Position numbers and translations under genes: made by a program. DNA of 64,000 nucleotides from Amoebophrya sp. A120 (Eukaryota; Protista; Dinoflagellata), in contig CAJINV010000005.1 in NCBI GenBank assembly GCA_905178155.1, positions 5,665,379 to 5,729,378 on the forward strand. The letters run 5' to 3'. The notes under the pieces were generated by a model that ran no database searches, was not told the origin of the DNA, and worked only from the letters and a program-made list of their open reading frames with translations. This document shows positions 1 through 56,646 of the stretch, piece after piece. Position 1 is the stretch's first letter; every line of letters starts with the position of its first letter.

Positions 1-3000
1 ATATCTGTCGCAGATAAAGCTGAGGAAACAGAAGTTGAAACGGATATTACCCGAATTGAGGTTCGAAGCCGGTTGCGCCGAACGGGGGAAAGCGGTGTAT
101 TGCGAAGCGGAGGTGAATATCAAGTGCAAAAATGTCTCGGTCTGGAAGATTGCCTGGTTTGTCGTGCATATTTTGCACAACCCATGATGCCTGTAATGAA
201 TGACCTAGCATCAGAGATTTTTAAAAGGGCCTTCTGGTTCTGATGCGTATTCCGCGTGAGAAATGCGGCCCTGTCCGCGTAGCACGAATGGAACTCCTCT
301 TGCTGGTCATGCAATACAGATTTTTTACCTTGTTCCAAAGACAGCATCACAAGTTACAACCTTCCAGACCCAGACATATTTGCATTCCATAGTGAACGAC
401 TTCGTGCAGTTTTCCTCGAGCCAAAATTTCTCAGGTACGACTACAGGAGGCTCTGGAACGCCCCGAGCTGCAGCAGCTGCGAATAGTACAGGAAATAGAA
501 ATCCGGGCGACATAGCGAACACAAGAATGTACTACCAGCAACACCACAGGGAAGCGGTGATTCAAGTTTGCGAAAAGATCCCGACTCTATCACAGGAAAA
601 AGTGTTATACGTTAACGGTTTTCACAGATTCTTGCAGTCATGCATCACAAATGTAGTTCAATATGCATGCTATGCATGACAAATTCTGACACGTCTTGTG
701 ATGCATTTCTGCGTCACAAATTCCGTTAACGTTAACACTTTTTCTTGTGATAGACTCTTCCCCCCATGCAGACCTGGCACAACCAGAAGGGGAGGCTGAC
801 CGCAAATCGGCCGGAGACGGTGGAGATCTCGAATCAGGTAGACAGAATCAAACACCAGATGAAAACTATCGTGCCGACCATTCACGCGGACCTGTTCACG
901 TTGTCGCAGTTAGTGACGTTGCCGTTCATGGAAGCAGAGGACAGGAGGAAGTTGGAGTTCGACGTTTTGGTTTTGCCCAACGGGGCGATTTGCTTCAAGT
1001 GCGTTTCTATCCACGATCCGGCGGACGATAGTGAAATAGATGGCGGAGAGGTCGAGGACGACGTTGATCAGGAAAGAACGGACTCGCTCTCGTTCCCGTC
1101 CAAAGCCGACCTGGCGAATTGCGAAGTGGAGGGTCCGGACGCGAGTCTGATCACAGCTTTTACGTTATCACAAGCAAAAGTGTTAAGGTTGAGGGTTTTC
1201 ACAGATTGGAGCCATGCATCACAAATTTAGCTTAGTATGCATGTTAAGCATGACAAACTTGGACGCGTTTTGGTTATGCGTTGCTGCGTCACAGATTCCG
1301 TTAATGTTACCACTTTTTCCCGTGATATACGCAGCAGGAGCTGAGGTTGAGCGGGAACGAATCCGCTGCCGCAGCGATTCTTGCGGGTTCAACATCTCCG
1401 CCGGCGCTGAAGAGACAACGCAAGGACAGCGACGACATTGCTCTTGCTGGGCAGCAAGATGAAAGAACCTCGAGCAGCGCCAGCGGCGGTGGAAGTTGTG
1501 CGATCGAAGAGGACCATCTGCATTCCCTAGCTGGTGCAAATAAAACATCAACTTCCAGCACGACGCTCCATAACACAGTCTCCCCTTCCTGGGAGCTTTG
1601 CCGGTCCCGCCTCATCCAGGCCGGTCGGGGTTCGCAGCTGTGCGCTTTCGGGCAACGGAAGACGAAAGAGGAGGCAAGTATACACTATTACGAGTTCGCG
1701 TTGAATACCCATTACATCCTGCTCGCAAAGCCCATCGAAGCGTGTTTCAAAGTCCAGAATTTACAGCACAAGCTCGACTTTGGCAAGCAGCAACCGATCA
1801 GCTTGAAGTGTATGCGGTACAAGCCGCCAAAGGTCGGGAATGCAACTAGCGCGCACCCGGAGCCGAAGTTGTATCGGAAGCAATTGCTGCAAATTTGGGG
1901 GGAAGCAATGTGGATATCACAGGAAAAAGTGTTAACGTTAACGGAATTTGTGATGCAGTGACGCATCAGAAAAGGTGCGCAAATTTGTATTGCATAGCAT
2001 GCATAGAAGGCAAAACTTGTAACGCATGACTGCCATTTGTGAAAACCGTTAACGTTAACACTTTTTTGTTTGATAGTGGATGGAGGAAAATCACAGCCAC
2101 TTGGTTTATTTTATCGACGATGGGAAAGTCATACCGAGGACAACTTCTGGCGGTAGTAGCAATAAACCTGCATCACCCGACGACCATCTCCACCCGGATT
2201 TCTATCAAATGTAAAAATGTCTGGGTCTGGAAGGTTGGAACTTGTGATGCTAACTTTGGACTCTAAAAAGATTTGTATTGCATGACCAGCAATAGGAGCC
2301 CAGTTTGTGCTACGCAGGGAGGGCATTTGTCATGCGGGATAGGCATCAGGAAGACCTCTACAAATATGTGATGCCAGACCATGCATTACAGACATCATGG
2401 CTCATGGAAAATATGCATGACAAAATCTCGCAATCTTCCAGACCCAGACATTTTTACGTTTGATAATTTCAAGCAGTTGACAAAAGAACGGATGATAACC
2501 ATCGGGAAAAATTACAATTGGAGCCGGTGCCGAGGGTTCGAATTTGTGGACAAACTATTCTCCTGGATTCATTCAGGCATGATCACTGGGCGTTGCCAGT
2601 GGCGGACGCGGTTTAAACTCTTCTGCAGTTCTACGAGGACAGATCAGCTATTCCCTGAAAATTTTTAACCACCCCCAGCCGGTCATTTTCTGCATGGCAG
2701 GCACTGAATTTACTACATGTTTTGCATGACAAATTGGAAGATTATGGGGATGGTTAATGTTTCAGGGAATATCAGCCGATTGAGACGGATCTGTGCGACA
2801 TGCTGGTCCTGCGCGGTTTAAAATACGATGAGCAGAAGCCAATGACTCGAGCACCAGTGAGCTTGAACTATTTCGGCGGGTTCTGTGATTTGAAGAAGAA
2901 CTACAAAAACGTGGGTAGTAGTACAACAGCCTCCTCTTCTATCGTACAAAAAAAGTGTTTCACTGTAAGGATCTTACAGGTTTTGCATCACAAGTTTGTT

Positions 3001-6000
3001 CTACATGACCGAGAAAATTTGCCATGCGAGGTTCCTAAAGGGAAAACACAGCGAAAAATCCACAGTCTTGCATGTGTAGCAAGACAAACGCTTGCGAGAT
3101 ACACTTTCTGCATTACAAGTTTACAGTGAAACAGTTTTTTCTGGGGATATCTTCATCTTCTGGTCAACGACTTTCCACCACCCCGACTTCCGCTGCGGCT
3201 GCTATGGAGTTCTCAAACGTTACACTCTCAACTGTTACATGCATTTGTCATGCAAAGTTGCCAACAGCCTCCACTTGATGAAGGTGCTTTAGCATGACAA
3301 ATTTTCGAAGGGCTAAGCAGCATGGTAATCTGTGGCAAAAAATCTGTGATGCGAAATATGCTGCAACGTTGCCACTTTTACTGTTGCTGTTCTTGCATTA
3401 TGTAACGTTTGAGAACGCTATAGGTGCTATGTGGCAGAGGACCCCGAGTCTCGGCAGTCAGCACCCGGGGGGATTGCTGCCGAACGAGACAATGTATGAA
3501 ATGCAAATAGGTCTGGGTCTGGAAGAATGCGACATTTGTCATGCTAGTCTGGAATGACTCTGCACTCTGTATTGCGTGGCCACCAAGCGGCCCGCTTGCC
3601 TTTCATGCGAATAAAGCGCAGTTTCTCATGCGAAATACGCATCACAGAAGCACGAAAAGAGTTGTCATGCTTGGCGGCGCAGTACAGAGCACTCTATTGT
3701 TCACGGAGTTGCATCACAAGTTTCCAGACCGCCAGACATTTTTGCGATTGAGACAATGCAGCTGCAGTTTGACACGTTAGTCAAGGAAGTACTGGACGAG
3801 GTAGAAACCATATCGCAAGAAAAAACTGTTTCGCTGTAAATTTGTAATGCAGAAACTGTATCTGAGAAGTGTTTGTCTTGCTATACATGCAAGACACTAG
3901 ATTTTTAGCTGTGTTTTCCCCTAGGAATCTCGCATGGAAAAGTTTCTCTGTGATGTAGAACAAACTTGTTTTGCAAAATAACTTACAGTGAAACACTTTT
4001 TTCGTACGATAAACCACGTCGTCAAAGGCCCCCGCCATTGTAACCGGGAAGAAGATGTCCTCGCCATCGAAACGCCCGCCGAGCGACAACAAGAAGGGCA
4101 CGACTAGCAAAGAAGATGAACCAGAAACGGCGATGAAAGTAGACGAGACCTTGGATGAAAAGCAGAAAGTCCTCGCTTTGTTCAAACAAAAACAGCAGAA
4201 AATCAAATCTCTCCCGAAGATCTACTCCACCATCAGCCCTTTCTCCCCGTATTTCCAGCTTCTCCAAGTGCCCTACGGGTGGCATTTGCGGTACTCCCGC
4301 TCCAGCAATCGGTCCTACTACGAGCACGCAACCTTCAAGCAAGAGAAAATCCAGAATTGGCAAAAGCGTGAGAAGCCGCAACTATTGGCAAAACTGGAAG
4401 AAGAGAAGAAGAAGCTCACTGAGGATGTCGCCTCGAAGAGGCAGCAAGCAAGAGTCGAGCACTACAAGAATGCGTTAAAAGCGCAGCATCCGGACAAGAT
4501 GCGATTTCACTCTTGGACGGAATTGTACAAAACACCCATTGGGTGGCAAGCGAGAATTCCTTCTGACGTGTGGAAAAACGAAATGAGTTTCAAGAAGATG
4601 CCAGATTCGGTGGAGTTTGGTAGGTTGCAGAAACTGGAAAACCAGAAGAAACCGGACCAGAGGAAACTACTCGATCCGGAGGACACGATATGCATCGCAA
4701 AAGTTTATCGTATTAGTGGATTAATTGCATTACAAATTAGCTTAGCATGACTGATGTAATTTGTCATGCTGTTTTAGCTGAGAAATGCTGAACTGCAATT
4801 AGTACACGAGTGCGATACTTTTGCAGTGGATACACGAAGTCGCGGTACGACGTGTACTTTGAGAACTCGTTTTTGGACAAGAGGTTCACCACCGGCGGCA
4901 GTACAGATATCACAAGAAAAAGTGTTAACGTTAACGGAATTTGTGATGCAGTGATGCATCAGAAAAGGTGCGCAAATTTGTATTGCATAGCATGCATGGA
5001 AGGCAAAACTTGTAATGCATGACTGCCAACTGTGGAAAGCCTAATGTTAACATTTTTTTTGTTTGATAACAGGCAGTGGCGCTTCCTCCTCCGCGGCGAA
5101 AACGACGAATAGCACGGTTATTCCGACTGACATGCAGGAGTTGCTGAGAGCGACGGACACCTTTGACAACCGGAACTTTTTCAGCTTGAAAAACTCGACG
5201 ATCAAACAGAACACTTCGCTATCCTGTGTGAGAAAAACGTCCCAACCCCGAAGTTGTCATGCAGATTTGCGATTACAGGAACATTTGTCGTGCGCATCTC
5301 CATGAAATGCATTTCAGATCGTGTTCTAAAATTTGTAATGCTGTAAACAGGATGACTGAATTGCTTTGTCATGCAGCTTCCCTTGCTGACCACACTACGC
5401 TGCAGATGGAAAGAACTTGTCATGCGCAACTCCCAAAACTTGGAGACTTGTCTAGCAGACTTGACTATGGGGTCCTCGTGGGGACGTTTTTACTCAGGAC
5501 ATTCCCTCTCCTCCGTGGACCTTCTCGCCGTGAAACTGCAAAAAGACGAGATTTCCGAAGAGGCCGTGGCGAATTATCTGAAACAGGAGGCAAATCGGTT
5601 TTACACGGCGAACGTGACGGACTGGAATTTGCCGTTTAAATCCGCAGACCAGTCGACCAGGGATTGGTTGGTCAGTCAAAACGGGATTTTTCTAGTGAGA
5701 AAGTTCGGCCACGAGAGGAGTATCAAGGATTTTACCAGTCCGGAGTTGGCGAAAGTGGATATGGACGACTGGAGACACGAAAAACGGGAACAACCAGAGA
5801 CTCTCGCTATCAAAGTGAAAAAAAAACCCTCCCCCTATCGAAACGAAGTTTCTGATGCTGGATTTGCGAACACAAATCAGATTTGTCTTGCTGGAGAGGA
5901 CTACAGACGCATAGTAATCCGGAGCAGAGCGGCTTTGGCATAGGCACTTAGCATGAAGAACGTCCGCACTGCAGGCCCAACAGCATGACAAAACGCCTGC

Positions 6001-8541
6001 AAAATGCGGCGGAGACTGTGGAGCTGCCTTCTTGCAAGACAGACGCGATCTGTGGCCACAAATCAGCAACGCAAATTGTCGAAGACGTGACCACGCGTCA
6101 ATATGTGTATGGGGAGGGGGGATTTTTCCGTGTGATACTCGTGGACGACGCGGCTGTTGAGGACGTGTTTGCTGCGCTGGATGGGAATAACGCCGGGTAT
6201 TTTCATGGGGCAGGACGAACAATGTATGGCGAGGAAGTAGACCAAGGATGGTCACTGGAGCGGGAGCTTTTTGAACAGCAGCAGGAGATAAATAACGAAA
6301 ATGGAGGCGGACCTCCTCCGCAGTTGTTCTACAACGAATCTGTACTGCAATTTCAGCAGCAAGTGCAACAGCAAATTCAGGAGTACCAGTTGCAATCTCC
6401 GAATTTTGATGTCAAAGAGGACGAGGACCAGCAGCAGCATCGTGATTTCTCACAACCGCAGGCGCACCAGCAACAAGCGCATCAACTGGAGGGCGCGCAT
6501 CAGCATCTTCAGGAGCAATACGGGTGGTGGAGCTCGCCGGAGGAACAGCAGCGTGTCGGGTGGAATAATATTACCGCTACATCGCCCTGTTCTTGTGAAG
6601 GAAACCAAAACACTTTGTTCAATGACAGTCTGCGTCTGTCCCGGTTGCAGAGGAGCTCGGAGGACTTGTTATCCACCGGGAAAAAACACCCATCCCCATC
6701 CAATTTGTCATGCACAACATGTGTATCAGTTCAACAGGGCCCGCGGTTCAACAATGTACCTACCAGTTCAATACCGCCCCGGGGCCTAAATATCCTAGAA
6801 CAAGCAGGCCATTTGATATGCTCGGCGCCAAAAACATATGCAGGTGGAGGAAGGAGTAGGGGGGGCGTTCCTGACCCAAAGGTACGCTCCTGATCTCAGT
6901 GGTACTTAGTCGACCCGGGGGGCCAGGTATTACCTGACCCCCGGTTCGGGTCTGTGCCTGCAATGCTGCAGCGAAGTCGTTTTAGATGGTGCTGCAGCAC
7001 AGCTGCGCGCACCTTGATGGGCGCCAAAGGCCCCAAGTCTGTCGCTACAGAAAACGGTAGCCATGACTGCGATCGGCCCTAGTGTTCGACCGCTTTCTGT
7101 TTGAAACCAGCGCCGCGCACACAGCTTCGGTCTTCGTGCGCCCATTGATCGGAAGCAGCGTCCCTAAATCCTACGGCCGGCAGCCGTGCCACCGTAAACA
7201 ATAGTCGCGCAGCGCTTCGCGCCTCACAAACCAAAATCGCGCGCGCGCGCGCCAAAATACAGGACCTTTTGGGGCTTGTTGCGTGCACATTCTTTTTGCG
7301 ACATATGGCGCCCGCAAGATATGCTCTGTAGCTCATCGGGATTCTTTTCTCCCGTTGCCCGCTCTTTTTTTCGGGGTTTGGCACGTGCACTACGTATGGT
7401 TCTCTTCTTTTTCGTATGCCCGGAACCTTCACGAACTAAGTAGTTCGTGAACTGGGGTACACTCTCGAACCGATTCACATGCATAAAATCCGCTAGTTGT
7501 CATGCAAAAAATGGATGGGGATGGGTGTAGAAGTCTTTTCCTAGATACTTATCTGAGGAAGAACATTTAGAAGACCGCCTGAACGACTTACTCCCGTACA
7601 GCTTCTACGGAGGGGATAGGATGAAGGACAACGGTACAACTACTAGGGGCGAACAGCAGGAGACGAACCAGCGAGCTTCAAAAATATTGCCAGACGAGCC
7701 GCGACATCATCAACATCATGACGCGGTGGAGGAACCTGTTCCGTTTAATAGCGAAGGATCCTTTTTGCTGCCTCTGGAAGTAGGAGAGACGCAGAGAATC
7801 AACGCGGAGACTACACCAGGAGGCACCGCTCGTCGTGCCAGCGAGGATCATCCTCTCCTAGAAGAGCACCAACAGGACGAGGACGAGGACGAGTATGACG
7901 AAGCGGCGGAGGCCCGGGAGCTCGCTAAGGAATTGGAAAACGGTCTCGGCGCTCTGGTGTTGGAATCGCCAGAATTGCTGGTCTCGTTGGCAGAGAGCTT
8001 GGAGAAGGAGGAGCAGGAAAAAATGAAAAAGGAGAAGGAGGAGGCTGAAGCTCAAGCTGCAAAAGTAGTAGAGGACAAAGAAAATATTATCCCCACAACT
8101 AGTACAACTGGTGGCCGTGCACCAGCTGCACAAACGAGAAGTTGTCCAGGGGCGCGGCGTCCTAGTTCTCGCGATAAAAAAGCAGCAGAAGACGACTACG
8201 ATTTTGAAGCAGAATTGCAGTCTCCCACGGATGTGACCGCGAAGAACCAGCAGGATACGACGGTAAATAACACTTCTGCAGGACGAGCGGCGTCAAGCGC
8301 CAAGGATCAACAGCAGAGTAAATATCTCAAACTGCCACTGGAGGAGCCAGACGAAGCGGGTGATGATGATGTCGAAGATGATCACGATTTGGATGACCAC
8401 TGGGATCTTCTTCGCGGGGAGGACGATGACGATCATTGGGATGGATTGAACTCGCCCGGGGCCGCTGGGGATAATTCAGAGGCTCCTGAGCACAAGAACA
8501 TCAATAAGCGAAAACTACTACACAAGCGAAAGCTTGTATGA
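1..8541 (+). CDS. Large multi-exon protein (5' end outside window) with a WW domain; 15 introner introns
   Basis: Removing each TIR element plus one 5-bp repeat joins the ORF fragments into one frame (e.g. CEAEV|NDFVQ, KIPT|LPPMQ, RSSEDL|SEEEHL) ending KRKLV* at 8541. WW-like motif VPYGWHLRYSRSSNRSYYEH at about 4265-4330. Confidence 0.75.
118..391. mobile_element. Introner, family A
   Basis: TIR TGCAAAAATGTCT(C/G)GGTCTGGAAG; TAT...ATA ends; direct repeat GTGAA/GTGAA. Confidence 0.9.
588..752. mobile_element. Introner, family B
   Basis: TIR TATCACAGGAAAAAGTGTTA..CGTTAACGG; repeat GACTC/GACTC. Confidence 0.92.
1166..1327. mobile_element. Introner, family B
   Basis: TATCACAAGCAAAAGTG...CACTTTTTCCCGTGATA; repeat TACGT/TACGC. 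Confidence 0.88.
1915..2075. mobile_element. Introner, family B (inverted relative to 588)
   Basis: Family B TIR; repeat GTGGA/GTGGA. Confidence 0.92.
2203..2465. mobile_element. Introner, family A (inverted relative to 118)
   Basis: TIR TATCAAATGTAAAAATGTCTGGGTCTGGAAG; repeat ATTTC/ATTTC. Confidence 0.92.
2649..2771. mobile_element. Introner, family M
   Basis: TATTCCCTGAAA...TTTCAGGGAATA; repeat TCAGC/TCAGC. Confidence 0.9.
2940..3149. mobile_element. Introner, family C
   Basis: TATCGTACAAAAAAAGTGTTTCACTGTAA...TTACAGTGAAACAGTTTTTTCTGGGGATA; repeat TCTTC/TCTTC. Confidence 0.9.
3203..3422. mobile_element. Introner, family F
   Basis: TATGGAGTTCTCAAACGTTACA...TGTAACGTTTGAGAACGCTATA; repeat GCTGC/GGTGC. 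Confidence 0.88.
3495..3753. mobile_element. Introner, family A
   Basis: GTCTGGGTCTGGAAG...TTCCAGACCGCCAGAC; right end AGA; repeat CAATG/CAATG. Confidence 0.87.
3811..4011. mobile_element. Introner, family C (inverted relative to 2940)
   Basis: Family C TIR; repeat AACCA/AACCA. Confidence 0.9.
4689..4832. mobile_element. Introner, family E
   Basis: TATGCATCGCAAAAGT...GATACTTTTGCAGTGGATA; repeat CACGA/CACGA. Confidence 0.9.
4908..5068. mobile_element. Introner, family B
   Basis: Near-identical to 1915-2075; repeat ACAGA/ACAGG. Confidence 0.9.
5220..5501. mobile_element. Introner, family H
   Basis: TATCCTGTGTGAGAAAAACGTCCC...GGGACGTTTTTACTCAGGACA; repeat TTCGC/TTCCC; homologous to 52084. 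Confidence 0.87.
5808..6137. mobile_element. Introner, family G
   Basis: TATCAAAGTGAAAAAAAAACCCTCCCC...GGGGAGGGGGGATTTTTCCGTGTGATA; repeat CTCGC/CTCGT; homologous to 52476. Confidence 0.88.
6670..7547. mobile_element. Introner, family D, carrying a nested insertion
   Basis: AAAAAACACCCATCCCCATCC...GGATGGGGATGGGTGT; repeat CTTGT/CTTAT; siblings at 11512 and 13153 are only 138 and 114 bp. Confidence 0.85.
6722..7477. mobile_element. 756-bp non-coding insertion nested in the family D introner
   Basis: Imperfect TIR TGTATCAGTTCAACAG / CTCTCGAACCGATTCA (12/16), flanked by CATG on both sides; absent from siblings. Confidence 0.7.
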
Positions 8542-9383: not shown

Positions 9384-12300
9384 ATGCGCGGTTGTGACGA
9401 TCCAGCATCCGTCGCTGCTGGTCTCAACGTCGTTTCTTTCACCTACAATTGCGGTGGCGTGGAGCCCCCGCAGGAGGAAAATTTAAAGCAGAAGCTACAG
9501 GAAGAGATTCGGGAAAATCTGCTCCAGCAGAGGATTGATTGCAGTCGCAACAGTGATGGAAATGATCTTGTTGATTTTGCTGGTGCGCCTGCGGCCCATT
9601 CTGCTTATATTACCGTCGAACAACAAGCCGCAAATCCATCCACAACTGGAGGCACAACGAGGAGCGCTGGTGACCACAGTGTGTGCTTTACCCCGGACAT
9701 CGTTGTGATCAATCTGCAAGAATGTTGCCCGCTAGCCCTGGCCGCTTTAGGCAACAACGCTTCGGACTCCTACGGAAACAAATGGCGAGACGTTTTCATT
9801 GAGGCTCTGGGCTACGGGCCATTAGACCGATTGACCTGCAGGTTTTACACCCAGTTGCACGGCGGGAAGGGAGCTTCAGGAACCGACGTTGCACCTGCGC
9901 AAGAGCTCGATATAGAGGAAAAATGCGAAAATTCCGCCGGTGATCAACATGTTGTATCGAGTTGTTCTAGGGCTCATGTCGCGTCCTCGTCCTCGTCTGC
10001 GAGCGCCGTTGCGGCTGCTAGTGACGTAGCTTGTTCCAAAAAGTGCTCCTCAAAATCGTCAGTAAGCACAGCGGCCTCGTCTTCTTCTAGTTTTGTTTCT
10101 ACGGCAAGCAGCACTGGTGATTGGAAACAACTCGCAGCTTCCGCTTCGAGCTCTTCCAGGCTAGAAAGGGAAAGACAAATATGCTCATCGCCGGATAGCA
10201 ATTGCAGTTCAAATTCGAGCGCCTCGACATCATCGAGTAGCGCTTCATCCTCTTCGACATCTTCCCCGTGTTGGACTACGACGGAGCAAATCAGCCCCGC
10301 ACCTAGAGCCAGTCCACCCGACGAGAGAAGGGATGAAATAAGCCCGAAGGATCCACCAGTGTCGCCGTCGCCCGACGCATTAGTGAACGAGAAAGGCCGC
10401 CGCGATCTGTTCTTCCCACCGGCCTTATCAACATCGGGAGGGGAAGATGTAAATAAACACGCACCACAAATCGCATCAAACGGAGCGGAAGACGAGACAG
10501 TTACGACAAACAGTTGTGGTTCATCTAGCAGCTGCTTCAGCGCTTCAGCGTTATCTTCAACCGCAGTGACGCCAGGGAATTCCAGTTCGAATTCCTCTTG
10601 TTCTAGCTTTCTCCCGCCCGGCGGCGCAGGTATGGTAGTGTCAGGATCGAAATCGACAAAGTTGAAACATCAATTTGCGATGCATAAAATGCAATCCACA
10701 GAATGCCTGTCTTGCAGAGTAGGCAAGGTAGGCAGATTGTAAGCCTGATGAGGGGTAGAACTAGAAACTGAGCTGCTAAAGTAGCATGACAAAAGGGGTC
10801 TTCCTTACCCAAACAGCATGACAAACTGGATTTCGGTTCTACCCAAGTTTGTCATGCACCACTTAGAAACTGGGTTACAACTGGCATCCATTTTATGCAT
10901 GACAAACCATTAACGACTTCAATCCTGGCACTTCCATAGCAGGCAGTCGCTTTTTACAAGTTCCTCAAGCCGGGGGTGCGAAGGTGCGCAGTGCGGGAGG
11001 TCGTGCAGTTGTTGGGCAGCTGACCGCCGAGTCTTCCTCTGCGAGGACAGGCAGCATGACAACAGGAGGTGGAGGCTTTGGGTCCCGCCGGGCAACCGCG
11101 ATCACTACGAATAAGATGCAGAAAAATTATAACCGCCGGCCGACACAGCTACCGGAAGAGCTGCAGGGCGGGTCGTTTGGAAGTACTTCTAGCTGCGCTC
11201 AGACTCAGACGCCTGCTGCAGAGGGCAAACAGGACGAAATAATAATAAAAGAAGTTCTTGCAAAAGTTGGTAAAAAATCCCGACGACGGCGCGGCACAGA
11301 GAGCAGTAGCACTGGGGGCTCCTTCATCGACCTTGCTGACTACGAAGACGCAGCCTGTCGCTCTCCCTCGTCACACAGTTGCCAGCAGAACTTCTCATGC
11401 GAAACGCCGAAAGTAGTAAAGGTGAACAAGCAAGGTGGTAAAGCAGGCCCCAGCTGCTCAGGCGGTAGAATCGACGACGACCACTTTTCAACATCCGAAA
11501 CAACATCCGACTATCCAGGAAAATGAAACACCCATCCACATCCGATTTGTCATGCGAAACACGTATCAAAAAAAGAAAATTTCTGAAGATAATGCTGTGT
11601 TTGTCATGCAAAAAATCGATGCTGGGGTTGGATTTTTTTTCCGTCAATACCAACAGTAGCCTCGCTGCGGATGTGGAGCACAGTCCAAGGTGCACCGTTT
11701 TGTATCACAGGTAAAAGTGTTAACGTTAAACGCTTTTCACCGATAATTGCAGTCATGCATCACAAATGTAGCCCAATGCGCATGTTATGCATGACAAATT
11801 TTGGCACGTTTAGTGATGCATTGCTGCATCGCAAATTCCGTTAACGTCAAGAACACTTTTTCCTGTGATATTTTGAGCGCGACGGCAAGAAATTCCATAA
11901 GCAAGGCCATCAGACGGGAGGAGAGGAAGAATAAATCATCACTCCTGCTGCATCAAAAGACCACTAGCACACGGACAAAATTCAGTGGTTCGTCATCATC
12001 CACGACCGCCGCCCACACCGGGGAATGTTATCACTCCTTGGCGTTCGCCCCTATGTCGCAGCAGGTGACGACGCCTCCGAAACTAGGCTCCATCTCGTCC
12101 AAAACCGGACTTTTGCAGCCGCCCGCGCTGCTGAAAGTAGGAGCAGCTCATCCGGGAGGAGGTGCAGGCAATGCAAGTGCTTCGCCTTCGCATTCTCCTC
12201 TCAAGCACATGATCCACCAGTCACGACGCTGCCTGAGCCCCGGTCGGGTAGGACAGGAAAGTTCTCTGAACACATTGCCAAGCACGTGTAGCTATCCTGT

Positions 12301-15300
12301 GCAGAAGTATCGTACTCGTGGTAATTGCAGATATGCATCACAAATTTTTTTCTCAAGGTAAATCAGCATTACAAATTTCATTTCTCATTCTCATGCTGAG
12401 GAAATTTGTAATGCATTTATACGAGTGCGATACTTTTGCAGTTCATAGCACCACCTTCTCGACGTCCTCTTCCTCCAAAAAACTTGCAAAAGTCGCTTCC
12501 TCCCCTGGGCCGCTGCGGAGTTGTGCGGGCGGCCGGAAAAATTATATACAGCCGAAGACGTCGGGGTCAGCGCACACCAACAGCAGTGGGACGACGAGTG
12601 TTGCCGGCCGCGGTCCTGGGGCAGCTGTTCTTTCAGCTGATGTGCGGAGCAAACAGAAGAACGTGGCTTTTTCAACAGCAGGAGCGACGGGCGGAGCACA
12701 TCATCAAAACGACGCGGCGGTAATACCTTTGCAGGTCTCGTCAGAAGGTGTATTGGATTGCTCACCCAACTACGCTACCAAGGACCCGGAACAAGTTCCT
12801 CCTCCTGCGCATCAAGCTGATAAAAAGCACATGACCGAACAACAGGAAGAATCAAACAGCAGCCACCAGCCCTTGATAAACAACATGAACAAACCCCACT
12901 TACGACTGATCAAATCACACCGCATGGTGGGTTTGTTCACCCTCGTTTTCATCAACACGAAAAAAATCCCGACCTCTGCCATCCACTCTTGCACGAGTTG
13001 CCAACATAAATTAGGCTTCTTCAACGGCTTACTGGGGAACAAAGGGGCCATTTGCGTCCGCTTGACGCTGCAGATGCCCGGAGTGGTACGGACACAAGTA
13101 TTAAGACCGCTCCGCCTCGCGTTTTTCAGTTTCCATCTCCACGCCGGGGAAGTATCCAGGAAAAAACACCCATCCCCATCCAATTTGTCATGCAAAACAT
13201 GCATAATTTGCAGCGTTTTTCATTTTCATGCAAAAAATGGATGCGGATGGTTTTTTCTTCTCGATAGGATGGCTTGAACGCGTATAAACAGAGGCTGAAC
13301 GGCTTGAAAGAGGTGTTCGGGGACAAGAGTTGTATCTCCACTACCCAGGAGGGAGGCGAAGAACACGCCGAAGAGTCGCTGGTGCTCAACCGAGCGTCTG
13401 TGACGTCAGCGTCGGGCAGGACTGTAGGTAGAAGTTCTGGTGTGGTCCAGCAAGGGGCACCAGGGAGCTCAAACAACGGCGAGGGTACTCAAACAACTGG
13501 CAATCCGTTGTTTGAATACGAGCGGTCATGTGACTATCGCAGGAAAAAGCGTTAACGTTAACGGATGAATTTTTTGTATATGCAAACACGCATGCCTATG
13601 CGTGCCATTGTCATTGCCGGAAAAAATGGAACTTGTATTCGCCATTTTTGCGTAGCATGTAATGTAGTAGAGAAAATGAAAATCATCATGTCATGTCCTT
13701 TAGGCTGAAGACCGTTAATAGCGTTAGCACTTTTCTGTTTGATACTGACTTCGCGTTTTTCAGTGGGGATTTCAATTTCCGCTGTATGCCGGTTAATCAA
13801 GATTATTTGCTGCAGGAGGATCATAATTTTGAAGGAGAAGGACATCTTGAAGGGCACCAGGAGCACGTGCACGCAAGCGGCCCGGGGAGCGAAATTCACC
13901 ATGCTAGTAAAAACCTCCACCAGGTAGATCTTCAGGAAGAGGCCCTTTGCGGCTCCGCCGGTAATTTTTGCTGCTCGAACACCAGTAATTGCTGCTCCGA
14001 AAGCACGTTATCAAAGGAGACGGTAAGTGACTTCTGTGCGGTAGGCGGAGCTGGAGGTGGAGCCGCAACGACCTCAAGTTCTATCACAGGAAATAGTGTT
14101 AACGTTAACGGAATTTGTGATGCAGAAACGCATCCCAAAACGTGCCAACCTTTGTCATGCATAGCATGCATACTAGGCAAAATTTGTCATGCATTTTTGC
14201 AATCTATGAAAACCGTTAATGTTGCCACTTTTTCCTGTGATAAGTTCAGGATACGTCACATCGTCGTGTGACGAGGAACAGTCCTCCTCTTTACGACAAT
14301 GCACAACTCCCTCTCCCCATCATTTGTCATGTAAAATACCAAGTCCACCCTTTCCCCTTTTGCGCGGCTTGCATGACAGATTCCGGAAGCCGAAACAGCT
14401 CTAGAATCGGTCCCCCTTTTGTCATGCAAAAGCTGTATGTATGCCACGACTTGCGTTGCTGCTAGCTTATGCCATTCAACAAATGAGGGGGAAGGGGAGT
14501 TGTGCACTCTCATAGCCCTCTCTTCAGGATAACGACAGCAGCTGCAGCTCTCGTTTCACACTGCGGAATTACAGCACGGCAAAGTTTTTATCGCAGCCGA
14601 GATTTTCATCTGTAGCGCTCCAGAATCTCAGTGATGTGGAGCAGGAGCTAGAGCTACACTCTGCGGGTGCGGTGAATCATGCTGCACAACAACCTCGTCT
14701 CCCGCCTCTCGCGGCTGTGGTGCAGAAGAAGCACTACAAAGACGATGATAAAGAAATCGAAACGCATCCAGATCCACCACCAGCTCACCAGCACGAGCAG
14801 TCCTTGCGCGACGATGAAAACCGGCCAGGACGAGTATCCTGTGCAAAAGTATCGTATTCGTATTGCAATTATGCATTACAATTTTTTTCCGAAAGCTAAA
14901 TCCGCATTACAAATTTTGTTTCTCATGGAAATCGAAATTTGTATTGCATTTATACGAGTACTACGATACTTTTGCAGTTCATAACGAGTAGCAGGTGCCA
15001 AGAACTCAACAGAGGCAGCCGCAGCCAACCCATCTTCTGCAGACCCCCGGGCAGTGGAGGATTTTGATTTCGCATTTTTTCACGAGCTTTTTCACTGCGA
15101 GCCGGTGATTACCCCCGTTTTGAGCTCCTGGCACAAAAACTACGGGAGCAGCAGCTTTAACGACAATCACAAGAGCGCAGAACTTGTCCACAAAATCACA
15201 ATGCACGACGAGCAAGCGTTGCAAAACTTCGAAGCCGAAGACGAGACGCTGGTGAAAATCGTGGTGCCAGACTGGGTAAGCATTGCAAAAGTAGCGTTAT

Positions 15301-41500: not shown

Positions 41501-44427
41501 ACACGTAGAACTGCTAGAAGGTCTTGCTCTCGGAACAAAGAAGGGCGCAGGAGCTCGAAGATTTCGTCGAAGCAAGGCCGCAGGAACGATCGCAGCCACT
41601 CGACTTCCTCTAGTAGAAAAAGCGCTTGCTCTTCGACAGGAGGTCGCTCGAGCCGCAGCAGCTCCGCAGATGATGCCCGGCAAACAACCGGGAAGAATCA
41701 AACCACTGTTAGTACTACCACCCCATCCGGCTTTATTGCGGCCGTGTCGCCGAAAACCTCTCATCTTGCGGACAAGATGAAAGTCAGCCTTCTACAGAAC
41801 TCCACCGTGGAACAAACATCGCCAGGCACAACTATCCGAGGACTTCCAGCGAGAATGATTTCCAGCCCGTGGGCGAGCACCACGCTCGATCTCAATCAGC
41901 CGGCCATTTGGTTTGCAAAAGCCTGGAGGGGGATTCGGCTATTCCCAAAATTGGAACCGACGAGTGACTACTTCATGCCTGTACGAGAAGCACGAGGAGG
42001 GAAGAAATCAAAGACAAGTTCTACAGAAAGAGCTGCCCAGGAGGGCTTCCTCTCCCAAGTCGACTACTTCACGGAGTTAAGCACCAACGTTTTCCAACGG
42101 TTGCTCGACTCCTCGCCAGATGCGAAAAAACTTTTCGAAACGCGCGGAACAGAGCTGGTTGCAGAGGGCCTGATGGACATGTTTCGCCCGAGGGGAGGAC
42201 GGGGAAGATTGCATCTAGAAGACGATAGTCAGAACCTCCATCAACCAGTTTTCTACTTCGCACACATCTTTTTTCTCAACGTGCTCTTCGCGGATCTGTA
42301 TCCCATCCTCGGCCACGGCCCGGACCCGGCGTTGTATTCCGTTGTGCATAAAAGAAGCAGCCAAGACGTCATTTATTTCAATGAAAAATGCCCTCATCCC
42401 CGAACTTGGGAGCATTTGTATTGCAAACCTTTCCAAATAAAACACTCGCCCTCTTGCATCTATCAACATCACAGGTTTCCAATCGTGAATAGCAAAAATT
42501 TGTATTGCAACAGACCCCAGCAAGAGCGGCGCTTGTCATGCAAGCGATGCGATACACGCCTAGACTCTGCATCAGAAGGATTCATATACATATTCCTTTC
42601 ATGCATGACAAAAAGTTTTCATTTGGCAACTTCGCACCACAAATTTTTGCAATTTCAGGGGTGGGGGGCACTTTTCACTGTAATATCATCCCGGGGGGAA
42701 TCTGTGCGGATTTGCGGCAAAGAGAGCACTTTTGCGACGGAGATCGGGCGGAGATGTTGGCGGGGGATTGTTTCGAGAGTTTTGCGAGTGACGTGGCAAG
42801 GCCGTTGCCGCAGTTCCCAATGGAAATTGATGTAAACCCGCAGGTGGAGAGTGTTGCGCAGATGATGAAAAAGCTGCATTTGAAGGTCAAGGTGGAAAAA
42901 GAAAAGAAGGAAAATGATAAACACAGTTCTTCCTCGCCTTCAGCTGGAGCCGGTGCTAGTGCTTCTTCTTCTTCGGACAGGACGCGTACTACTTGCTCGG
43001 GAACAGGAACAGGATCGGGATTTGCTGCAGCTACTTCGTCTAGAAATAAAATGGGAAGTTGTGGAGGCGTCTCCTCCAGCTCCAGCAGCTCGCCGTTATG
43101 CGGCATTTCTCCCACCAAGAAATCGACCGAACGTGGCAACACGGCCAGAAGCGCCTTTTTCTCGCTTGCAACGACTGTCGCACCGGCTGAAGACGAGAGG
43201 CCGCTTGAGATTCTCGCGGAAGATGAAAAGATGGAGGACGTTGAGGCCCTAGCCAATGACGAAATCGATGGCATGCTTGAGAACCAAGAGGAATCTTCTG
43301 CATCTGACTCCGAGAAGATGAACTACGAGGAACCGGAGCGGTCGGACGAGGAGGATATCGAAGAAGAGCCCTTCGACGACATGTTAGACCTCGGCCCAGA
43401 ACATCCATTCTGGAATCAAGGAAGACCACTTCCCGAGGACGAGCGGATGAATGCCGATGTTGACAGATGGAGAGCGCCTATTTTTAGGCTTCCTTTTCAC
43501 CTCCCGCCCGGCGGTGCAGTCAGCAACAGAACCACGCCTGGCAAAATGTGCGACCAGCTGTATTTCTCCTTGTCCGATGCGAATCTCGACCCGAGGGCAG
43601 GAGCTTCATCTACTTTGCAGCACGTGCTCTACCATCCCACATCCGGAATGCCCGTGCCGGTTGAAGAAGCCGACTTGGAAAATAGCCAAAATCCTCTCCC
43701 CCCACCCTACCACCACCCTTATACCGGAATAGACAACAGCAGTACTCTGCTAAACGCAGCTGAAAATATGCTGAAAAGAGCGGAAGTCTTGCTCCCCTAC
43801 GCTTTTCAGTGGGAGCTGCTGTTTCGCTCGATTCCCGACGTGGTCCGGGACCACCAGCCCTGGGGAAGGAGAAACGCGAGTGGAAAAGAAGTCGCGGAAG
43901 ACGTGCAAGCGAGTGGAAAATTATTGAAGCTGTTGGTGGAGACCGCGGCGCGGGTGGCGAAGGCGGAGGAGGAAAAAAAGCGGGGGGCAAGAAGTTCAAA
44001 AAAATTCGGTGGAAGTAGTAGTAGACGAGGGACATCATCATCATCTTCACAAGAGCACCACGACGACGACGAGGACAACGTCCAGCACCTCAAAAATCAC
44101 AACCAAATCAAGTACTACGTAAGCAGCTTCTTGCACGAATTGTCCGTGGCCGTCAGAGAAACGAGAGACGAAACCAACCTGCTCTGGCGGATTTGTGTTG
44201 CGCCGAGGCTACAGCTTGACAGAGGAAGTGGTAAAGAATCAGGGAAAGCACTACAAGCGCATTTGCCGGAGCACGTTCCGAGGAGGCTGCAGCTGCGGCT
44301 AGACATGCTGAATTTTATCGAAAGACATGTGTTGCAGGATAGAGGAATTGCTGCGGTGTTGATGGACGGGCACTACACAGATTCGTCGGATGGAGAAGTT
44401 GTAGCCACGTTTGCGGGTACTATTTGA
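38523..44427 (+). CDS. Large hypothetical protein with hydrophobic N-terminus, 2 introner introns and one in-frame TAA (39180-39182)
   Basis: ORFs 38523 and 39294 share a frame; joins REQS|NSNTACW and QDVI|PGGICAD restore the frame to the stop at 44427. Confidence 0.65.
39660..39809. mobile_element. Introner, family E
   Basis: Right TIR GAGTGCGATACTTTTGCACAGCATA; repeat AGAGT/AGAGT. Confidence 0.9.
42374..42685. mobile_element. Introner, family O
   Basis: TATTTCAATGAAAAATGCCCTCATCCCC / GGGGTGGGGGGCACTTTTCACTGTAATA; repeat TCATT/TCATC. Confidence 0.88.
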
Positions 44428-44457
44428 TTTTGAAGTGGCAGAAGATACTTAAAACTG

Positions 44458-45733
44458 TATCCTGAGCAAAAGTCTACCCAGGGCATAGTTGTCACGAGAA
44501 AACTTGCTTTGATTTGGTTACCAAATCACCAAAAAAAGCTCACGCATTTGGTGAGCGCCGTAGCATGCGGATTAGCATCTTATCCGTTTCCCCGTGTCGA
44601 GTTATAGACCGGGGCGGTGGAAAAAATCGCATCCCTGTCCTTTCCTTGGATGCGCAGCAGCATGCGGATTAGCTCACGGGCGTGACCCGCGAGGACAGCC
44701 ATACCATGCGGATTCAGTTTTTTTGCAAAAAGTGCCGACTTTTTTGCCCGAAAAAAGCGAAACCCGACGGCACGGCCGTGGTTTGGGTTTCGCCCACTAA
44801 ATGAATCCGCATGCTATGGGCCCCCTCGAGAGATCGGCCCAAACGCGCGAGCCGAAGGGCGCGCCATACCATCGGCAATGTGGGCACAGGCCCCCCCAAG
44901 GGGGGCCATAGCATGGCGATTCGGGCGGGCTTTTTTTTTTGTGAAGTTTTGCGATTTTTTCTGGAAAAAAACAGCAAACACGACGGCACGGCCGTGGTTT
45001 GGGATTCGCCCATTACGCGAATCCGCATGCTATGGGCCCCCTCGCAAGGTCGGGCACAAAGCGCGGGCCGGGGGGCGCGCCATGCCATCGGTTCGGGAAT
45101 GTGGGCCAGATGTGCCCATAATCAAGATGGGCGAGCTTTATGGTCAGGTCTCGCCAGATATTTGACAATATTCGGAAACACAAAACAACCAGAAAGCGAA
45201 CAGATTGCTCGCCCATCTTGATTATGGGCACATCTGGCCACAGCATGCGGGATGGCTCATTTTGGCAACGCGGCGAACTGCTTCCCCGAGTTTGTTTCAT
45301 TTTGGCAACGCATTCCCGATGGTATGGCGCGCCCCCCGGCTCGCGCGTTTGGGCCGATCTCTCGAGGGGGCCCATGGCATGCGGATTCACATAGTGGGCG
45401 AAACCCAAACCACGGCCGTGCCTTCGGGTTTCGCTTTTTTTGCGCAAAAACGTCGTCGCTTTTTGTAAAAAAACTGAATCCGCATGGTATGGCGGTCCTC
45501 GCGGGTCACGCCCCTGAGCTAATCCGCATGCTGCTGCGCATCCAAGGAAAACACAGGGACGCGACTTTTTCCGCAGCCCTGGTCTATAACTCGACACGGG
45601 GAAACGGATAAAATGCTAATCCGCATGCTACGGCGCTCACCAAATGTGTGAGCTTTTATTGGCGATTTGGCAACCAAATCGAAGCAAGTTTTCTCGTGAC
45701 AGCTATGCCCTGGGTAGACTTTTGCTCAGGATA
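44458..45733. mobile_element. Intergenic foldback non-autonomous DNA transposon with inverted arms of about 420 bp
   Basis: TATCCTGAGCAAAAGTCTACCCAGGGCATAG...CTATGCCCTGGGTAGACTTTTGCTCAGGATA; repeat AACTG/AACTG. Confidence 0.93.
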
Positions 45734-50971: not shown

Positions 50972-53473
50972 ATGTTGGTGGATACTCGAACTTGTAACCT
51001 AATTCCGCTCTCAGGCTGCTCGGCTGCTGAAGACGGAGGGGATAATTTTGTCGAAAATATTAAAAACCCTTTTTCCGGCACTGTCAGCACCAAAGACACA
51101 AGCACCAGCTGCGACATGGAGCTGACCGATACCAGCATTGGCAGCAGCGCCGCAGAGCGGGCAGCACCACAGCCAGCTGGCTCGTGGTCGTGCACAAGGA
51201 CTCCGACGGGCCCGGGCGCAGCTTGTTTTACGGGAAAAAATAAACGGCACTTTTTCCAGCGTTGCGGGTCCTCTTCCTCCTCCCTGTTTACGTCGTATCC
51301 GGAAGATTACCAGAACCAATTATCAACTGCCTGCAACAGCCCTTATCAGGGGATGCAGGACGAAACCCCCCTGCAGTTCTTTGACCAGGAGTGTCACGCA
51401 CCAACTGCTTTCGGGTTTTGTGGGGGCGCTGGTGGAAAGGATTGTGCGGAGGCCGTCGTGCAGGACGAGGACACGCAGCACTGCTATTCCGCGCAAAGCG
51501 GGGGGCAAGAAGACAACCTCCACCAACATGAGCCGCAGACACAATTTTTTCCGCAATACAATTTCTGCAACGGCGGGCAGCAGATGCTGCTGGGCCACGC
51601 ATTTTCATCATCGCAACAGGAGAGTTTGTGCCACCTGTCGCAGCAGGGGCAGCAGTCTTTCGTGAACCAAGTGATCTATCGTCTCAACAGCGAGAATCTG
51701 TTGTCGCAGCAAAGAGAACATCAGTGCGAACAAATGCAAATGGTCGCTGAAGAAGAGGAAATTTCAGATGATGCGGATGAAGCTTTTCTCCATTTCCCCC
51801 GTCAGACGCTGAGCTGCCCGCTGCAACCCGTGCTGCCATTGTTGTTGGACGACGAGGAGCAGGGTGAGTTGACGCTAAGTGAGGACGGGAAGAACTACAC
51901 TATCCCGGGCCGCGGTTCTTTCTGTCTCGAAGGAGGAAATGATGAAGACTGCCGCACCTCCGCTGCCGGCGCTGCTTGCCCAAGCACGATAGGTACTACT
52001 ACCCGAGGACGTCAAAGAACGTCGATGAGCGCAGGAGTTCTTACAACGAGCGGCAATGAAGAAGATGACCAACTGTTATCATCTATTCCGGGTAAAAACA
52101 TCCCCACCCCAGAGTTGTCATGCAAATTTGCATGCCAAAAAAGTTTCTCATGCGAAGCCCCATGAGAAGCTTTTTCTAGTCGTGTTTTGGGATTTGTCAT
52201 GCTAGAAATAGCATGATATGCTAGATCTGCGATGCTGCTGAACTAGCTAAACAGGATTACACTACGAGGACAAACCTGTCATGCGAAACAACCAAAGTTG
52301 GCCGATTTGTCTAGCAGATTCTCCACGTTGACTCTGGTATGGGGGCGTTTTTACTCAGGATAACATCTCCTGTGCCGCCCTCCAGAACGTTTTTCAATCG
52401 CGCTCGTTCCTGCAGCGAGGGGGATCTCCGCAATTTCGCCATGAGAATTGCAGCACATGAAGAAGAAGATGAGAATATCAAAAGGAAAAATCCCCCCTCC
52501 CCACATCAAAACGAAATTTCTGATGCTGGATTTGAGTACACAAATCAGGTTTGTATTGCGGGAAAGCATTGCAGTCAGATCCCCAGGCTAGGTAGGGGCG
52601 TACGCGTCTAGTTGTTCAGCATGGCAAGCGGCTCCCCTTTAGGCTCAACAGCATGACAAATCGCTTCCATAGTGGGGCGGAAGCTTCTGCCCTTGTCTTC
52701 TTGCAATACAAATGTGATTTGCGACCTCAAATCAGCAGCACAAATTTGCGGAAACATACCTTTTCGATATGGGGAGGGGGGATCTTTGCTTTTGATAGAG
52801 AACAACAATTACGAGGACAACATCAACACCAACACGACTTTCACGCGTGAGTCCTGCGCGATGAACGTGATGATGTCGAACTCAAACTCTCCGGATAGCA
52901 GCACGACTTCCCCTATCAGCGCCTCTACCCCCGGGGTGGCCAAAACTCCTGCGGCCCTGACAATCATCAATCTGCTGGCAAAGGATCTGCAGGGACAGAA
53001 GAAGGTAGAAGTAGATACTGGCGGCCGCGGCCAACATTTGAATTTATCCCCCATTGACACGGCGACCAGCCGCACCAGTGGCCGGACGGTCAGTTCGGAA
53101 GAGGCGGGTGAGGATGGGCAATTCAACAGCTCCAGCACGAGCAATTCGGTTGTCGAGTACAACATGACAAGGACTACGTCGAGCTTCAACCTGTCCCATG
53201 GCAGCATGACAAACACCCAACTGCGGTTCCACCCCAGGAAGAACACTTTCGAAATGAACAAGAGCAAGCTGCTCTCTTCCTCGATGGACTTGGAGAATTT
53301 TGTCGTCAACAACTCCGGCCGGGTATCTACCAATCAAAACAATGATTTTTGCACGCGGCACAGCACGTATTCCGATCTATCCGCTTTCCACCCGATTCTG
53401 AATCCAGATTCGAAGGTGGTGCCGCCGGGCGAAATCGACTTTGTCATTAATAGCAGCTCGTCCTGCAGCGGAA
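50972..53473 (+). CDS. Hypothetical low-complexity protein, at least 2 introner introns; 3' end unresolved
   Basis: Joins QLLS|SPVPPS and EDE|NNNYED restore the frame; a damaged family E left end starts at 53474. Confidence 0.6.
52084..52362. mobile_element. Introner, family H
   Basis: Homologous to 5220; repeat TCATC/ACATC. Confidence 0.88.
52476..52797. mobile_element. Introner, family G
   Basis: Homologous to 5808; repeat GAGAA/GAGAA. Confidence 0.9.
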
Positions 53474-54253
53474 TATGCATTGCAAAAGTATCGTACTTTT
53501 TAGTAGTAATTGCATTACAAATTAGTTACGGCTCTGCAGGAGCATCATCATCATCATCTTCTTCTTCTTCTTCTTCTTCTTTATTTTCAGCTCGAGCTAT
53601 GTCCGCCCACCTGTACATTTATTTTATTCAGTCACTTTGCACGCATACATTGTTTCATCATGCTGGGGATCCGCATCTGCCCACTCATTTCTATCCATCC
53701 GAGTAGAAAAGGGAATCAATTCATCCAGCGAACAAGATTTGAATTTAGCTCGGGCTCGCGCGTGCGAGTTACGCCATGGCAGCGGTTTTATTTTTGAGAA
53801 GCCCTTGCACAGTGGTGCCAACACAAACGCGCATGTCCAAAGTAGTCCAACGTGTCCACGTTCAAGATGTGAGTCCAGCCTCCTTTCTTGGAGTTAGTGG
53901 TCGCTAAAAGCTACTTCGAAAAACCCACAGCGCGGGCCGCGCACGCGGCCCGGGACCCTAGTGACCCCGCTAAAAGCAGTTATCGAGAACTCGTTCTCGT
54001 ATTGCTCAAAACCTTTCCTCACGCCCGTGCATAGCACGCGCGGCGGCTGTGTGGGGTGGTGTGTGTTTTTCGGGTCAGAGACCTCAGGACTTCTCGAAAG
54101 TTTATTACCGTAGCTCGTGCTACTTCCTGCTAGTTCAGATTTCTCTGGTTAGCAGGTAGCGGCTAGTCCGCCTCACGAATTTGCAGTAGTTGTTTCATCG
54201 GCATGTTTGTCACCGGCCCTGCGAATTCCCGCTGCCAGTTTATTAGCGGCGGC

Positions 54254-56638: not shown

Positions 56639-56646
56639 CAGCAGTG

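Follow-up and report, generated by a model that had tools for sequence, protein, structure and literature searches.

An internal motif array shared by the introner elements of a 64-kb stretch of the Amoebophrya sp. A120 genome

Introduction

The closest described relatives of the sequences studied here are the introner elements of the dinoflagellate parasite Amoebophrya sp. A120. In their text and supplement legends, Farhat et al. 2021 (PMC7789003) describe tips that consist of TAT, seven less conserved bases and at least three A, non-canonical borders with direct repeats of 3-5 nt, and about 30,000 copies that make up 17% of the assembly; they found no U1 small nuclear RNA (snRNA) in A120. 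Here we analyze a stretch of 64,000 nucleotides from this genome (GCA_905178155.1, contig CAJINV010000005.1, positions 5,665,379 to 5,729,378 of the forward strand), referred to as the window and numbered from its first letter, whose many short elements with terminal inverted repeats (TIRs) carry a common internal motif. In the features covered by those parts of PMC7789003, the window elements match the published introners in their tips, border repeats and non-canonical borders, and likewise in length (about 110-330 bp), apparent removal from transcripts and division into many families; the direct repeat is 5 bp in the window, compared with 3-5 in that account.

No internal motif, spacing, conservation or tip likeness is described in the text or supplement legends of PMC7789003, its figure images aside, and no internal introner motif is described in the compared parts of PMC12130899, Datasets S2 and S3 aside, or of PMC11282704; Roy et al. 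2023 lay outside the scope of this comparison. A string search of the literature with four motif 10-mers returned only unrelated primers and constructs. New in this study are the motif's spacing of 31-33 bp in 12 families with unrelated spacers, the return of that spacing in independent contigs, the slower divergence of the motif cores, its instances at element tips and its equal use of the two strands.

Results

The motif is confined to one type of element

The motif is a real and selectively kept array of sites, placed on either strand and common to one superfamily of intron-transposons with TAT...ATA ends and a 5-bp target duplication. Its working form is GCAT(G/C/T)ACAAAT, 11 bases long, and the exact-match pattern GCAT[GCT]ACAAA was scanned on both strands. 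This pattern occurs 58 times in the window, whereas 100 dinucleotide shuffles gave 0.64 matches on average and at most 3. When runs of N are disregarded, GCATGACA is the most frequent 8-mer of the window (50 copies) and GCATGACAAA the most frequent 10-mer (34 copies). A 16-column matrix iterated from the exact matches converged on T-(A/C)-T-GCAT-(G/C/T)-ACAAAT-T-T. Counting as a site every position that scores at least 9 bits, we found 177 sites, compared with 16-28 (about 21) in 20 first-order Markov shuffles.

These occurrences are concentrated in TIR elements. Such elements and their fragments contain 54 of the 58 exact matches (46 in listed elements and eight placed by reading), and 158 of the 177 matrix sites fall in 38 TAT...ATA elements and three fragments that together span 10,287 bp, a density of 15.4 sites per kb. 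The 38 intact elements hold 153 sites, with at least two in 36 of them. A preliminary description of the window, made from its letters, had reported several motif copies in both orientations in the introners, and the counts bear this out, as they do the two examples it gave, at 5220-5501 and 42374-42685. Its broader statement, that every family carries the motif, applies to 37 of the 38 elements, each of which has at least one site, but not to the element at 44458-45733, which has none.

Elsewhere in the window, sites are scarce. The RNA-supported exons (4,845 bp) contain two weak sites and no strong one, or 0.41 per kb, which is the chance level; the reverse-transcriptase open reading frame (ORF) at 32702-36622 contains none, and at 54000-64000 the site density is also that expected by chance. 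The preliminary description had called the motif essentially absent from exons and from a long interspersed nuclear element (LINE). This agrees with the exon and reverse-transcriptase counts, with the reservation that one strong site (53201-53216, plus strand) lies inside an exon-like ORF at 52657-53706. Three strong isolated sites, at 23759, 24623 and 25225 on the minus strand (23759-25240), stand in intergenic-like DNA with no recognizable element around them.

Sites recur at a fixed spacing, in the window and in independent contigs

Inter-site distances peak sharply at 31-33 bp, with 51 pairs, 40 of which have the same orientation; among the 116 adjacent pairs no more than 100 bp apart, 50 are separated by 30-34 bp. 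The pairs at 31-33 bp span 12 named families as well as unclassified fragments, and their spacers have nothing in common. The array also has a set position relative to the element ends: at 56 of 74 ends, 27-42 bp separate the tip from the outermost site, and in elements of up to 340 bp the number of sites rises with length (Spearman 0.62). Weaker distance peaks occur at 37-39, 48-51, 63-65 and 69-72 bp. Helical phasing beyond the main peak was considered and is only partly borne out, with the peaks at 37-39 and 48-51 bp lying off the multiples of 10.5 bp.

The same arrangement was recovered from a metagenome scan seeded with two exact cores 20-24 bp apart, which returned 123 loci. Forty-two of these, with a common contig-name prefix and 79,259 bp of sequence in independent contigs, form what we call set J. 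The element families of the window are matched by 41 of the 42 set J loci (65-87% identity) and by none of the other 81, which are unrelated tandem repeats of 16-31 bp with no likeness to the window elements and were set aside. In set J we counted 604 sites, along with 70 elements that have TAT tips and are flanked by a 5-bp duplication; at least one site is present in 69 of the 70. When the seed pairs are excluded, 126 of its 382 adjacent pairs are separated by 30-34 bp.

The spacing and orientation of the sites bear on a possible structural role, in which inverted motif copies would pair in the transcript or in single-stranded DNA and zip the element into a hairpin that joins its ends. Predicted minimum-energy RNA folds of 36 elements are compatible with such a role, since they pair 75% of core bases, compared with 65% of other interior bases, and 40% of core bases pair core to core. 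However, pairing fails to explain the motif, because nine of the 36 elements have no core-to-core pairing and most of the pairs at 31-33 bp (40 of 51) are direct repeats, which cannot pair with each other. In addition, four of the 16 elements seen to be removed as introns have sites in one orientation only, and pairing alone leaves unexplained why the same sequence recurs at the same spacing across unrelated families. Overall, we judge a structural role improbable.

Motif cores diverge more slowly than their surroundings

To assess conservation, we compared the motif cores with the remaining interior of related elements. Leave-one-out identity was higher in the cores in five of five families (0.86 against 0.76, 0.81 against 0.68, 0.68 against 0.61, 0.73 against 0.57 and 0.89 against 0.86). 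In 43 non-overlapping nearest pairs from the window and set J, the mismatch was 8.8% in cores, 18.6% in the other interior and 13.0% in tips. A stricter set, from which the 28 seed-holding set J elements were dropped, left 31 pairs with mismatches of 11.2%, 21.2% and 13.0%, respectively, and cores were the less divergent part in 30 of the 31, a difference that motif-anchored alignment and the survivorship of callable sites may somewhat inflate. Among the nine pairs with at least 85% identity, the values were 6.2% in cores and 12.9% in the other interior (p = 1e-4). Neutral decay, which the recent pairs of the window had suggested when taken alone, was overturned by this larger sample. The cores thus escape the neutral decay that the preliminary description had named as counting against it; their divergence is about half that of their neighbors, and this supports its view of a functional motif, read by something common to all families.

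The conservation also bears on two further explanations. The motif might be a passive relic, left by an ancestral tandem unit of about 32 bp or by old nested tips and without present function, and an ancestral repeat could indeed yield both the regular spacing and the tip-like sequence. Yet the cores are better conserved than their surroundings in 30 of 31 pairs and in all five families of the leave-one-out comparison, while the spacers have diverged beyond recognition, which makes a relic the least probable of the explanations considered here. Alternatively, the motif could be a mark for silencing or base modification, laid down by small RNAs or a thymine-modifying enzyme, that restrains these transposons. 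Its presence on either strand, its great abundance and its confinement to mobile elements would suit such a mark. However, a harmful mark should vanish from propagating copies, whereas the cores outlast the neighboring bases, and a mark leaves both the spacing of 31-33 bp and the likeness to the tips unexplained. We therefore consider this explanation very unlikely.

The element families share tips and duplication length

The elements were collected with a script that required TA...TA ends, tips complementary in at least 12 of 16 bases and a 5-bp repeat at the flanks, which yielded 26 elements; relaxed settings and reading added the others, giving the final list of 38 elements and three fragments. 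Their 76 tips follow one consensus, TAT, seven variable bases and AAAA-(A/G)-T, with 72 T, 71 A and 70 T at positions 1-3 and 63, 62 and 70 A at positions 11-13. In set J, where the TAT start is present in 136 of 136 tips by construction, A occupies positions 11-13 in 105, 113 and 130 tips. The two copies of the 5-bp target duplication are identical in 22 of the 38 window elements and agree in at least four of five bases in 31.

A blastn comparison of the 38 elements (word size 7, E ≤ 1e-3), made with the 16-nt tips and the cores masked, gave 25 clusters with zero links across families, and the interiors are accordingly unrelated between families at that sensitivity. The preliminary description had spoken of families with non-homologous TIRs and interiors, on which the motif had converged. 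The interiors are indeed unrelated, but the TIRs are not, as they have a consensus in common. Since tip consensus and duplication length are common to the families, the shared motif needs no convergence, and the fixed spacing of 31-33 bp speaks against it as well. From these sequence comparisons, all families look like members of one superfamily whose constraints are limited to tips, sites and spacing; common tips, duplication length and spacing are the outcome expected from a single descent that keeps only the constrained positions. The intron with TGT...ACA ends that had been described at 17073 belongs to a larger TAT...ATA element (17053-17312, duplication CAGTT), of which it forms the inner part.

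Some tips are themselves instances of the motif. Six of the 76 window tips and 15 of the 136 set J tips score at least 9 when TAT is placed at motif positions -3 to -1, a register that is the best of 46 tried (23 offsets on two strands). In this register the mean tip score is -11.0, compared with a background of -28.8 (standard deviation 10.7), with most tips below the threshold. Families D and B provide the example TAT-GCATTGCAAA-AGT and family H the example TAT-GCAATACAAA-TTT, and TAT directly precedes 19 of the 177 sites. The likeness between motif and tip is strong in some families and merely architectural in others.

Elements are precisely absent from RNA-like contigs, in either orientation

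In the first 20 kb of the window, 16 elements are precisely bridged by contigs from runs X3-X6, whose RNA nature is a guess, and each of the 16 joints removes the element together with one copy of the duplication. The cover of these RNA-like contigs follows gene bodies, and DNA-like contigs (run X1) retain the elements; raw RNA reads of runs X9 and X10 are nearly absent from the region, with the exception of one repeat copy. No allowed register of any of the 16 removed segments yields a GT-AG, GC-AG or AT-AC reading, and at 13 of the 15 joints listed the border is ambiguous by 4-9 bases. A plus-strand gene in the first 9 kb holds 15 of the removed elements, and the sixteenth lies at 18160-18446.

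Together, the removed introns contain 30 plus-strand and 36 minus-strand sites. Four of the 16 have sites in one orientation only, two on the minus strand and two on the plus strand, and family A copies of both orientations are removed from the same gene. Because sites stand on both strands and family A is removed in either orientation, a reader of one RNA strand is unlikely. The intron-definition signal at the RNA level that the preliminary description had envisaged is not supported by these observations.

A host factor could instead bind the motif on DNA or chromatin and mark the element for removal, and the sites would then be kept since unspliced copies break the gene. We regard this as doubtful, though less so than the explanations weighed above. 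It accounts for cores that diverge half as fast as their neighbors, the closest pairs included, and for the presence of at least two sites in all 16 removed elements, and it suits the position of the sole site-less element of the window (44458-45733), outside a coding frame and just past a stop codon. The text and supplement legends of PMC7789003 also report neither a transposase nor U1 snRNA in A120 and leave the removal mechanism unknown. However, the sites show no strand preference with respect to transcription, and some introns have a single orientation; the 878-bp intron at 6671-7548 is removed with two sites only; strong sites persist in a fragment without tip and in intergenic-like DNA; and the paired tips already define the borders. 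The families, with their common tips and duplication length, are not independent, and nothing needs convergence on a host protein. Finally, because some tips adjoining the transposition cut are motif instances (6 of 76 and 15 of 136), a host factor acting on DNA is less economical than a transposase-type reader.

Catalog of the window elements

Element positions are given below without strand, and a joint, written as 112/392, is an exon-exon junction in RNA-like contigs from which the element is missing. The series in the first gene opens with a family B element at 118-391 (duplication GTGAA, five sites, joint 112/392) and two family A elements, at 588-752 (duplication GACTC, four sites, two of them 32 bp apart, joint 582/753) and 1166-1327 (three sites, plus strand only, joint 1160/1328). 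Next come an inverted family A copy at 1915-2075 (four sites, joint 1909/2076), a family B element at 2203-2465 (duplication ATTTC, five sites, joint 2197/2466), the element x1 at 2649-2771 (duplication TCAGC, two sites, plus strand only, joint 2642/2771) and a family C element at 2940-3149 (four sites, joint 2934/3150). Element x2 at 3203-3422 (three sites, joint 3199/3425) is followed by a family B copy with a degenerate right tip at 3495-3745 (five sites, joint 3485/3750) and by an inverted family C copy at 3811-4011 (three sites, minus strand only, joint 3804/4011). At 4689-4832 there is a family D element whose left tip, TATGCATCGCAAAAGT, scores as a site (four sites, joint 4682/4832), and at 4908-5068 another inverted family A copy (four sites, joint 4902/5069). 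Element x3 at 5221-5501 has seven sites, six of them on the minus strand (joint 5218/5506), and a family G element at 5808-6137 has five (joint 5802/6138). The long element of 878 bp at 6671-7548 (joint 6668/7552) completes the series; of its two sites, one is 31 bp and the other about 40 bp away from an end of the element.

Further downstream, family E is represented at 10631-10938 (duplication GCAGG, six sites, three of them in a 32-bp series), 16437-16741 (AAATG, six sites), 17368-17675 (CAAGA, five sites) and 17710-18018 (GGGCG, five sites). Family F occurs at 11512-11649 (two sites, located by reading) and 13153-13266 (one site), and family A at 11703-11870 (duplication TTTTG, four sites) and, inverted, at 14082-14242 (AGTTC, three sites). 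Family D was located by reading at 12293-12447 (three sites) and is also found at 14835-14983 (duplication ACGAG, three sites), 15277-15437 (CTGGG, four sites, the left tip among them), 21472-21626 (GATTT, five sites in steps of 30-33 bp from the tip inward), 27626-27805 (three sites, with a GAT microsatellite inserted at 27660-27690) and 39660-39809 (AGAGT, four sites), with a left-end fragment at 53474-53530 that holds a tip site and an internal site 35 bp inward. A G-like element at 14292-14514 has four sites, and the family G element at 52476-52797 (duplication GAGAA) has six. The family B element at 18165-18446 (duplication ATCGG, joint 18159/18447) has six sites, its right tip TATGCATTGCAAAAAT being one of them. 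A family H fragment without left tip was located by reading at 20893-21026 (three sites), and the intact family H element at 26788-26924 has four sites, with a right tip, TATGCAATACAAATTT, that is a motif site. An inverted family C copy lies at 27869-28077 (four sites). The other elements of the x series are x4 at 17053-17312 (duplication CAGTT, two sites), x5 at 42374-42685 (six sites) and x6 at 52084-52362 (seven sites).

Unusual elements and other features

The site-less element at 44458-45733 is 1,276 bp long, has a perfect AACTG duplication and a tip, TATCCTGAGCAAAAGT, of the common type, and sits just past the stop codon of an ORF that ends at 44427. Its inverted arms of 423 nt are 93% complementary, giving it a foldback-like form. 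It has a word of its own, AATCCGCATG, present nine times in both orientations and absent elsewhere in the window; both this word and the common motif contain GCATG...ATT. The element may represent a sister lineage with a different reader. In the 878-bp intron at 6671-7548, an interior of about 790 bp is free of the motif, and no inverted repeat was detected there; this intron may be an introner that captured foreign DNA.

In set J, the sole site-less element among the 70 (L022:1754-2077) has the tip TATGACGGTGAACAAC, a duplication matching in four of five bases and no internal repeated word. Two apparent long elements of set J proved to be tips of different neighboring elements and were rejected as single elements. 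At L015:400-1608, a cluster of TCACGTGA palindromes has the left end of family D on one side and a right end that bears the motif on the other, and this locus is probably a composite.

One copy of family E attracts RNA reads. On the left 114 bases of the element at 17710-18018 (17710-17823), about 680 raw reads of run X9 align with 95-99% likeness; 583 of them extend past the tip into a flank that differs from that of the window, and 229 end at 17823 and continue with extra letters, which we take to be the complement of a template-switch oligo. A family E copy elsewhere seems to be the source of an abundant RNA whose defined 5' end falls within the element.

The ORF at 32702-36622 has 1,306 codons and matches Pfam RVT_1 (E = 1.1e-11), and it is probably the LINE of the preliminary description. 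The exon at 12270-13277 encodes a domain of endonuclease/exonuclease/phosphatase family 2 (E = 1e-9), and several introner elements split it. Pfam has no match for most of the other window ORFs. A coding tandem repeat rich in proline and lysine (PQPKPKA-like) lies at 27340-27480, just upstream of the family D element at 27626-27805. The segment at 54000-64000 has a strong AT skew (-0.29 to -0.38). Its minus strand contains very long open frames that do not match Pfam, and 815 consecutive N occupy 56647-57461. For the YR element of the preliminary description, no tyrosine-recombinase domain was found among the 42 ORFs of the window, and Rfam and tRNA scans of it found nothing.

Discussion

Our preferred reading, to which we assign a probability of roughly one half, is that the element tips and the array are recognized by one and the same transposase-type DNA-binding protein, for which the array provides subterminal binding sites. 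The set distance of the outermost sites from the tips, the pairing of sites about three helical turns apart, the likeness of some tips to the motif and the conservation of sites amid drifting spacers all point to this kind of multi-site, subterminal binding. The reader would be a protein acting on double-stranded DNA, which would bind cooperatively to sites about three turns apart, beginning 27-42 bp inside each tip, and would be the mobilizing enzyme itself. Selection would then act on copies that still transpose: tips, sites and spacing would persist, and spacers would drift until the families look unrelated. A 5-bp duplication would suit an integrase-like DDE enzyme. Families of A120 introners that are flanked by TIRs and contain ORFs homologous to integrase-type regions of long terminal repeat (LTR) retrotransposons are reported in PMC12130899, and these families are a candidate enzyme class for the reader.

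Several observations weigh against subterminal transposase binding. Some concern the layout of the sites: their orientation relative to the nearer tip is unfixed (63 in the same and 84 in the opposite orientation), elements of up to 340 bp are filled evenly with no clustering at the ends, and 70 of the 76 window tips do not score as sites. Moreover, the element at 44458-45733 has the same tip type yet none of the motif sites, and all 16 spliced introns have at least two sites, which would also fit a role in removal. Other points concern conservation. The cores are conserved at least as well as the 16-nt tips (11.2% against 13.0% mismatch), and in the window alone the five closest pairs give 10.4% in cores and 12.0% in the other interior (p = 0.55, tips 4.4%), a comparison of low power. 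The sample amounts to about 143 kb, and the genome is likely close to 100 Mb; because the sample is so small, and because differences between nearest copies may date from propagating lineages, selection before insertion and selection after it are inseparable here. The enzyme itself is also missing: no transposase, integrase or recombinase domain was found in the 42 window ORFs or the 24 set J ORFs, and neither in the window nor in set J did we see an autonomous element bearing both the tips and the sites. Farhat et al. (PMC7789003), too, found no transposase in A120, and they argue that the spread is not driven by one.

Mobilization and removal could also be two tasks of one protein. A domesticated integrase-like protein might, while bound to DNA at sites three turns apart, mobilize the element and also flag the nascent transcript for a U1-independent excision in which the element leaves as a hairpin together with one duplication copy. 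This extension of the transposase-type reading is a long shot. If it were true, a transposase descendant would define the introns of this parasite by reading DNA.

Whichever protein reads it, a conserved 11-base site with fixed pairing at 31-33 bp in nearly every family offers a handle on how such introns spread. The motif also provides a sequence feature to which intron retention, mobility and strain differences can be related. Hundreds of families that appear unrelated would be recast as one superfamily, constrained in tips, sites and spacing only.

Among known systems, the nonconventional introns of euglenids, as described in the compared parts of PMC12501133 and PMC11282704, likewise have non-canonical borders, pairing of inverted-repeat ends, junction repeats and a suspected origin from MITEs (miniature inverted-repeat transposable elements), and their signature is N3-CDG ... 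CH'G-N5-6 followed by a purine. A euglenid-type intron was rejected for the window elements, whose tips read TAT(C/G)... and in which CAG does not stand at +4 in the allowed registers (for example in the intron at 583-752). These tips do agree with the account of A120 introners, and a diplonemid origin was rejected as well. The RBFOX site, (U)GCAUG, is an intronic splicing enhancer that acts on one RNA strand. The commonest motif variant resembles it in containing GCATG and in being confined to introns; unlike the RBFOX site, the motif uses both orientations equally, and its C and T variants break GCAUG. The internal eliminated sequences of ciliates are bounded by TA, derive from transposons, interrupt genes and are precisely removed by domesticated transposases. 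Here, in contrast, removal is seen in RNA-like contigs, and we found no evidence of DNA elimination of the elements, which the DNA-like contigs retain, so the likeness to ciliates is an analogy only.

The nearest parallel to the array itself is offered by transposon ends with multiple or subterminal sites, as in Ac/Ds and Hermes (hAT), En/Spm (CACTA), the P element, Sleeping Beauty with its inverted repeat-direct repeat (IR-DR) ends, Mu and Tn7. Such ends carry a short motif in both orientations that is related to the tip or includes it, is kept while the spacers drift and is also present in non-autonomous derivatives. Like these subterminal repeats, the window sites are short and repeated both ways within the ends of TIR elements that make a target duplication. 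Unlike the sites of many multi-site ends, they have no fixed orientation to the tips and fill the whole of small elements. Their strict pairing at 31-33 bp is unusual among such ends, and the elements that carry them also act as introns.

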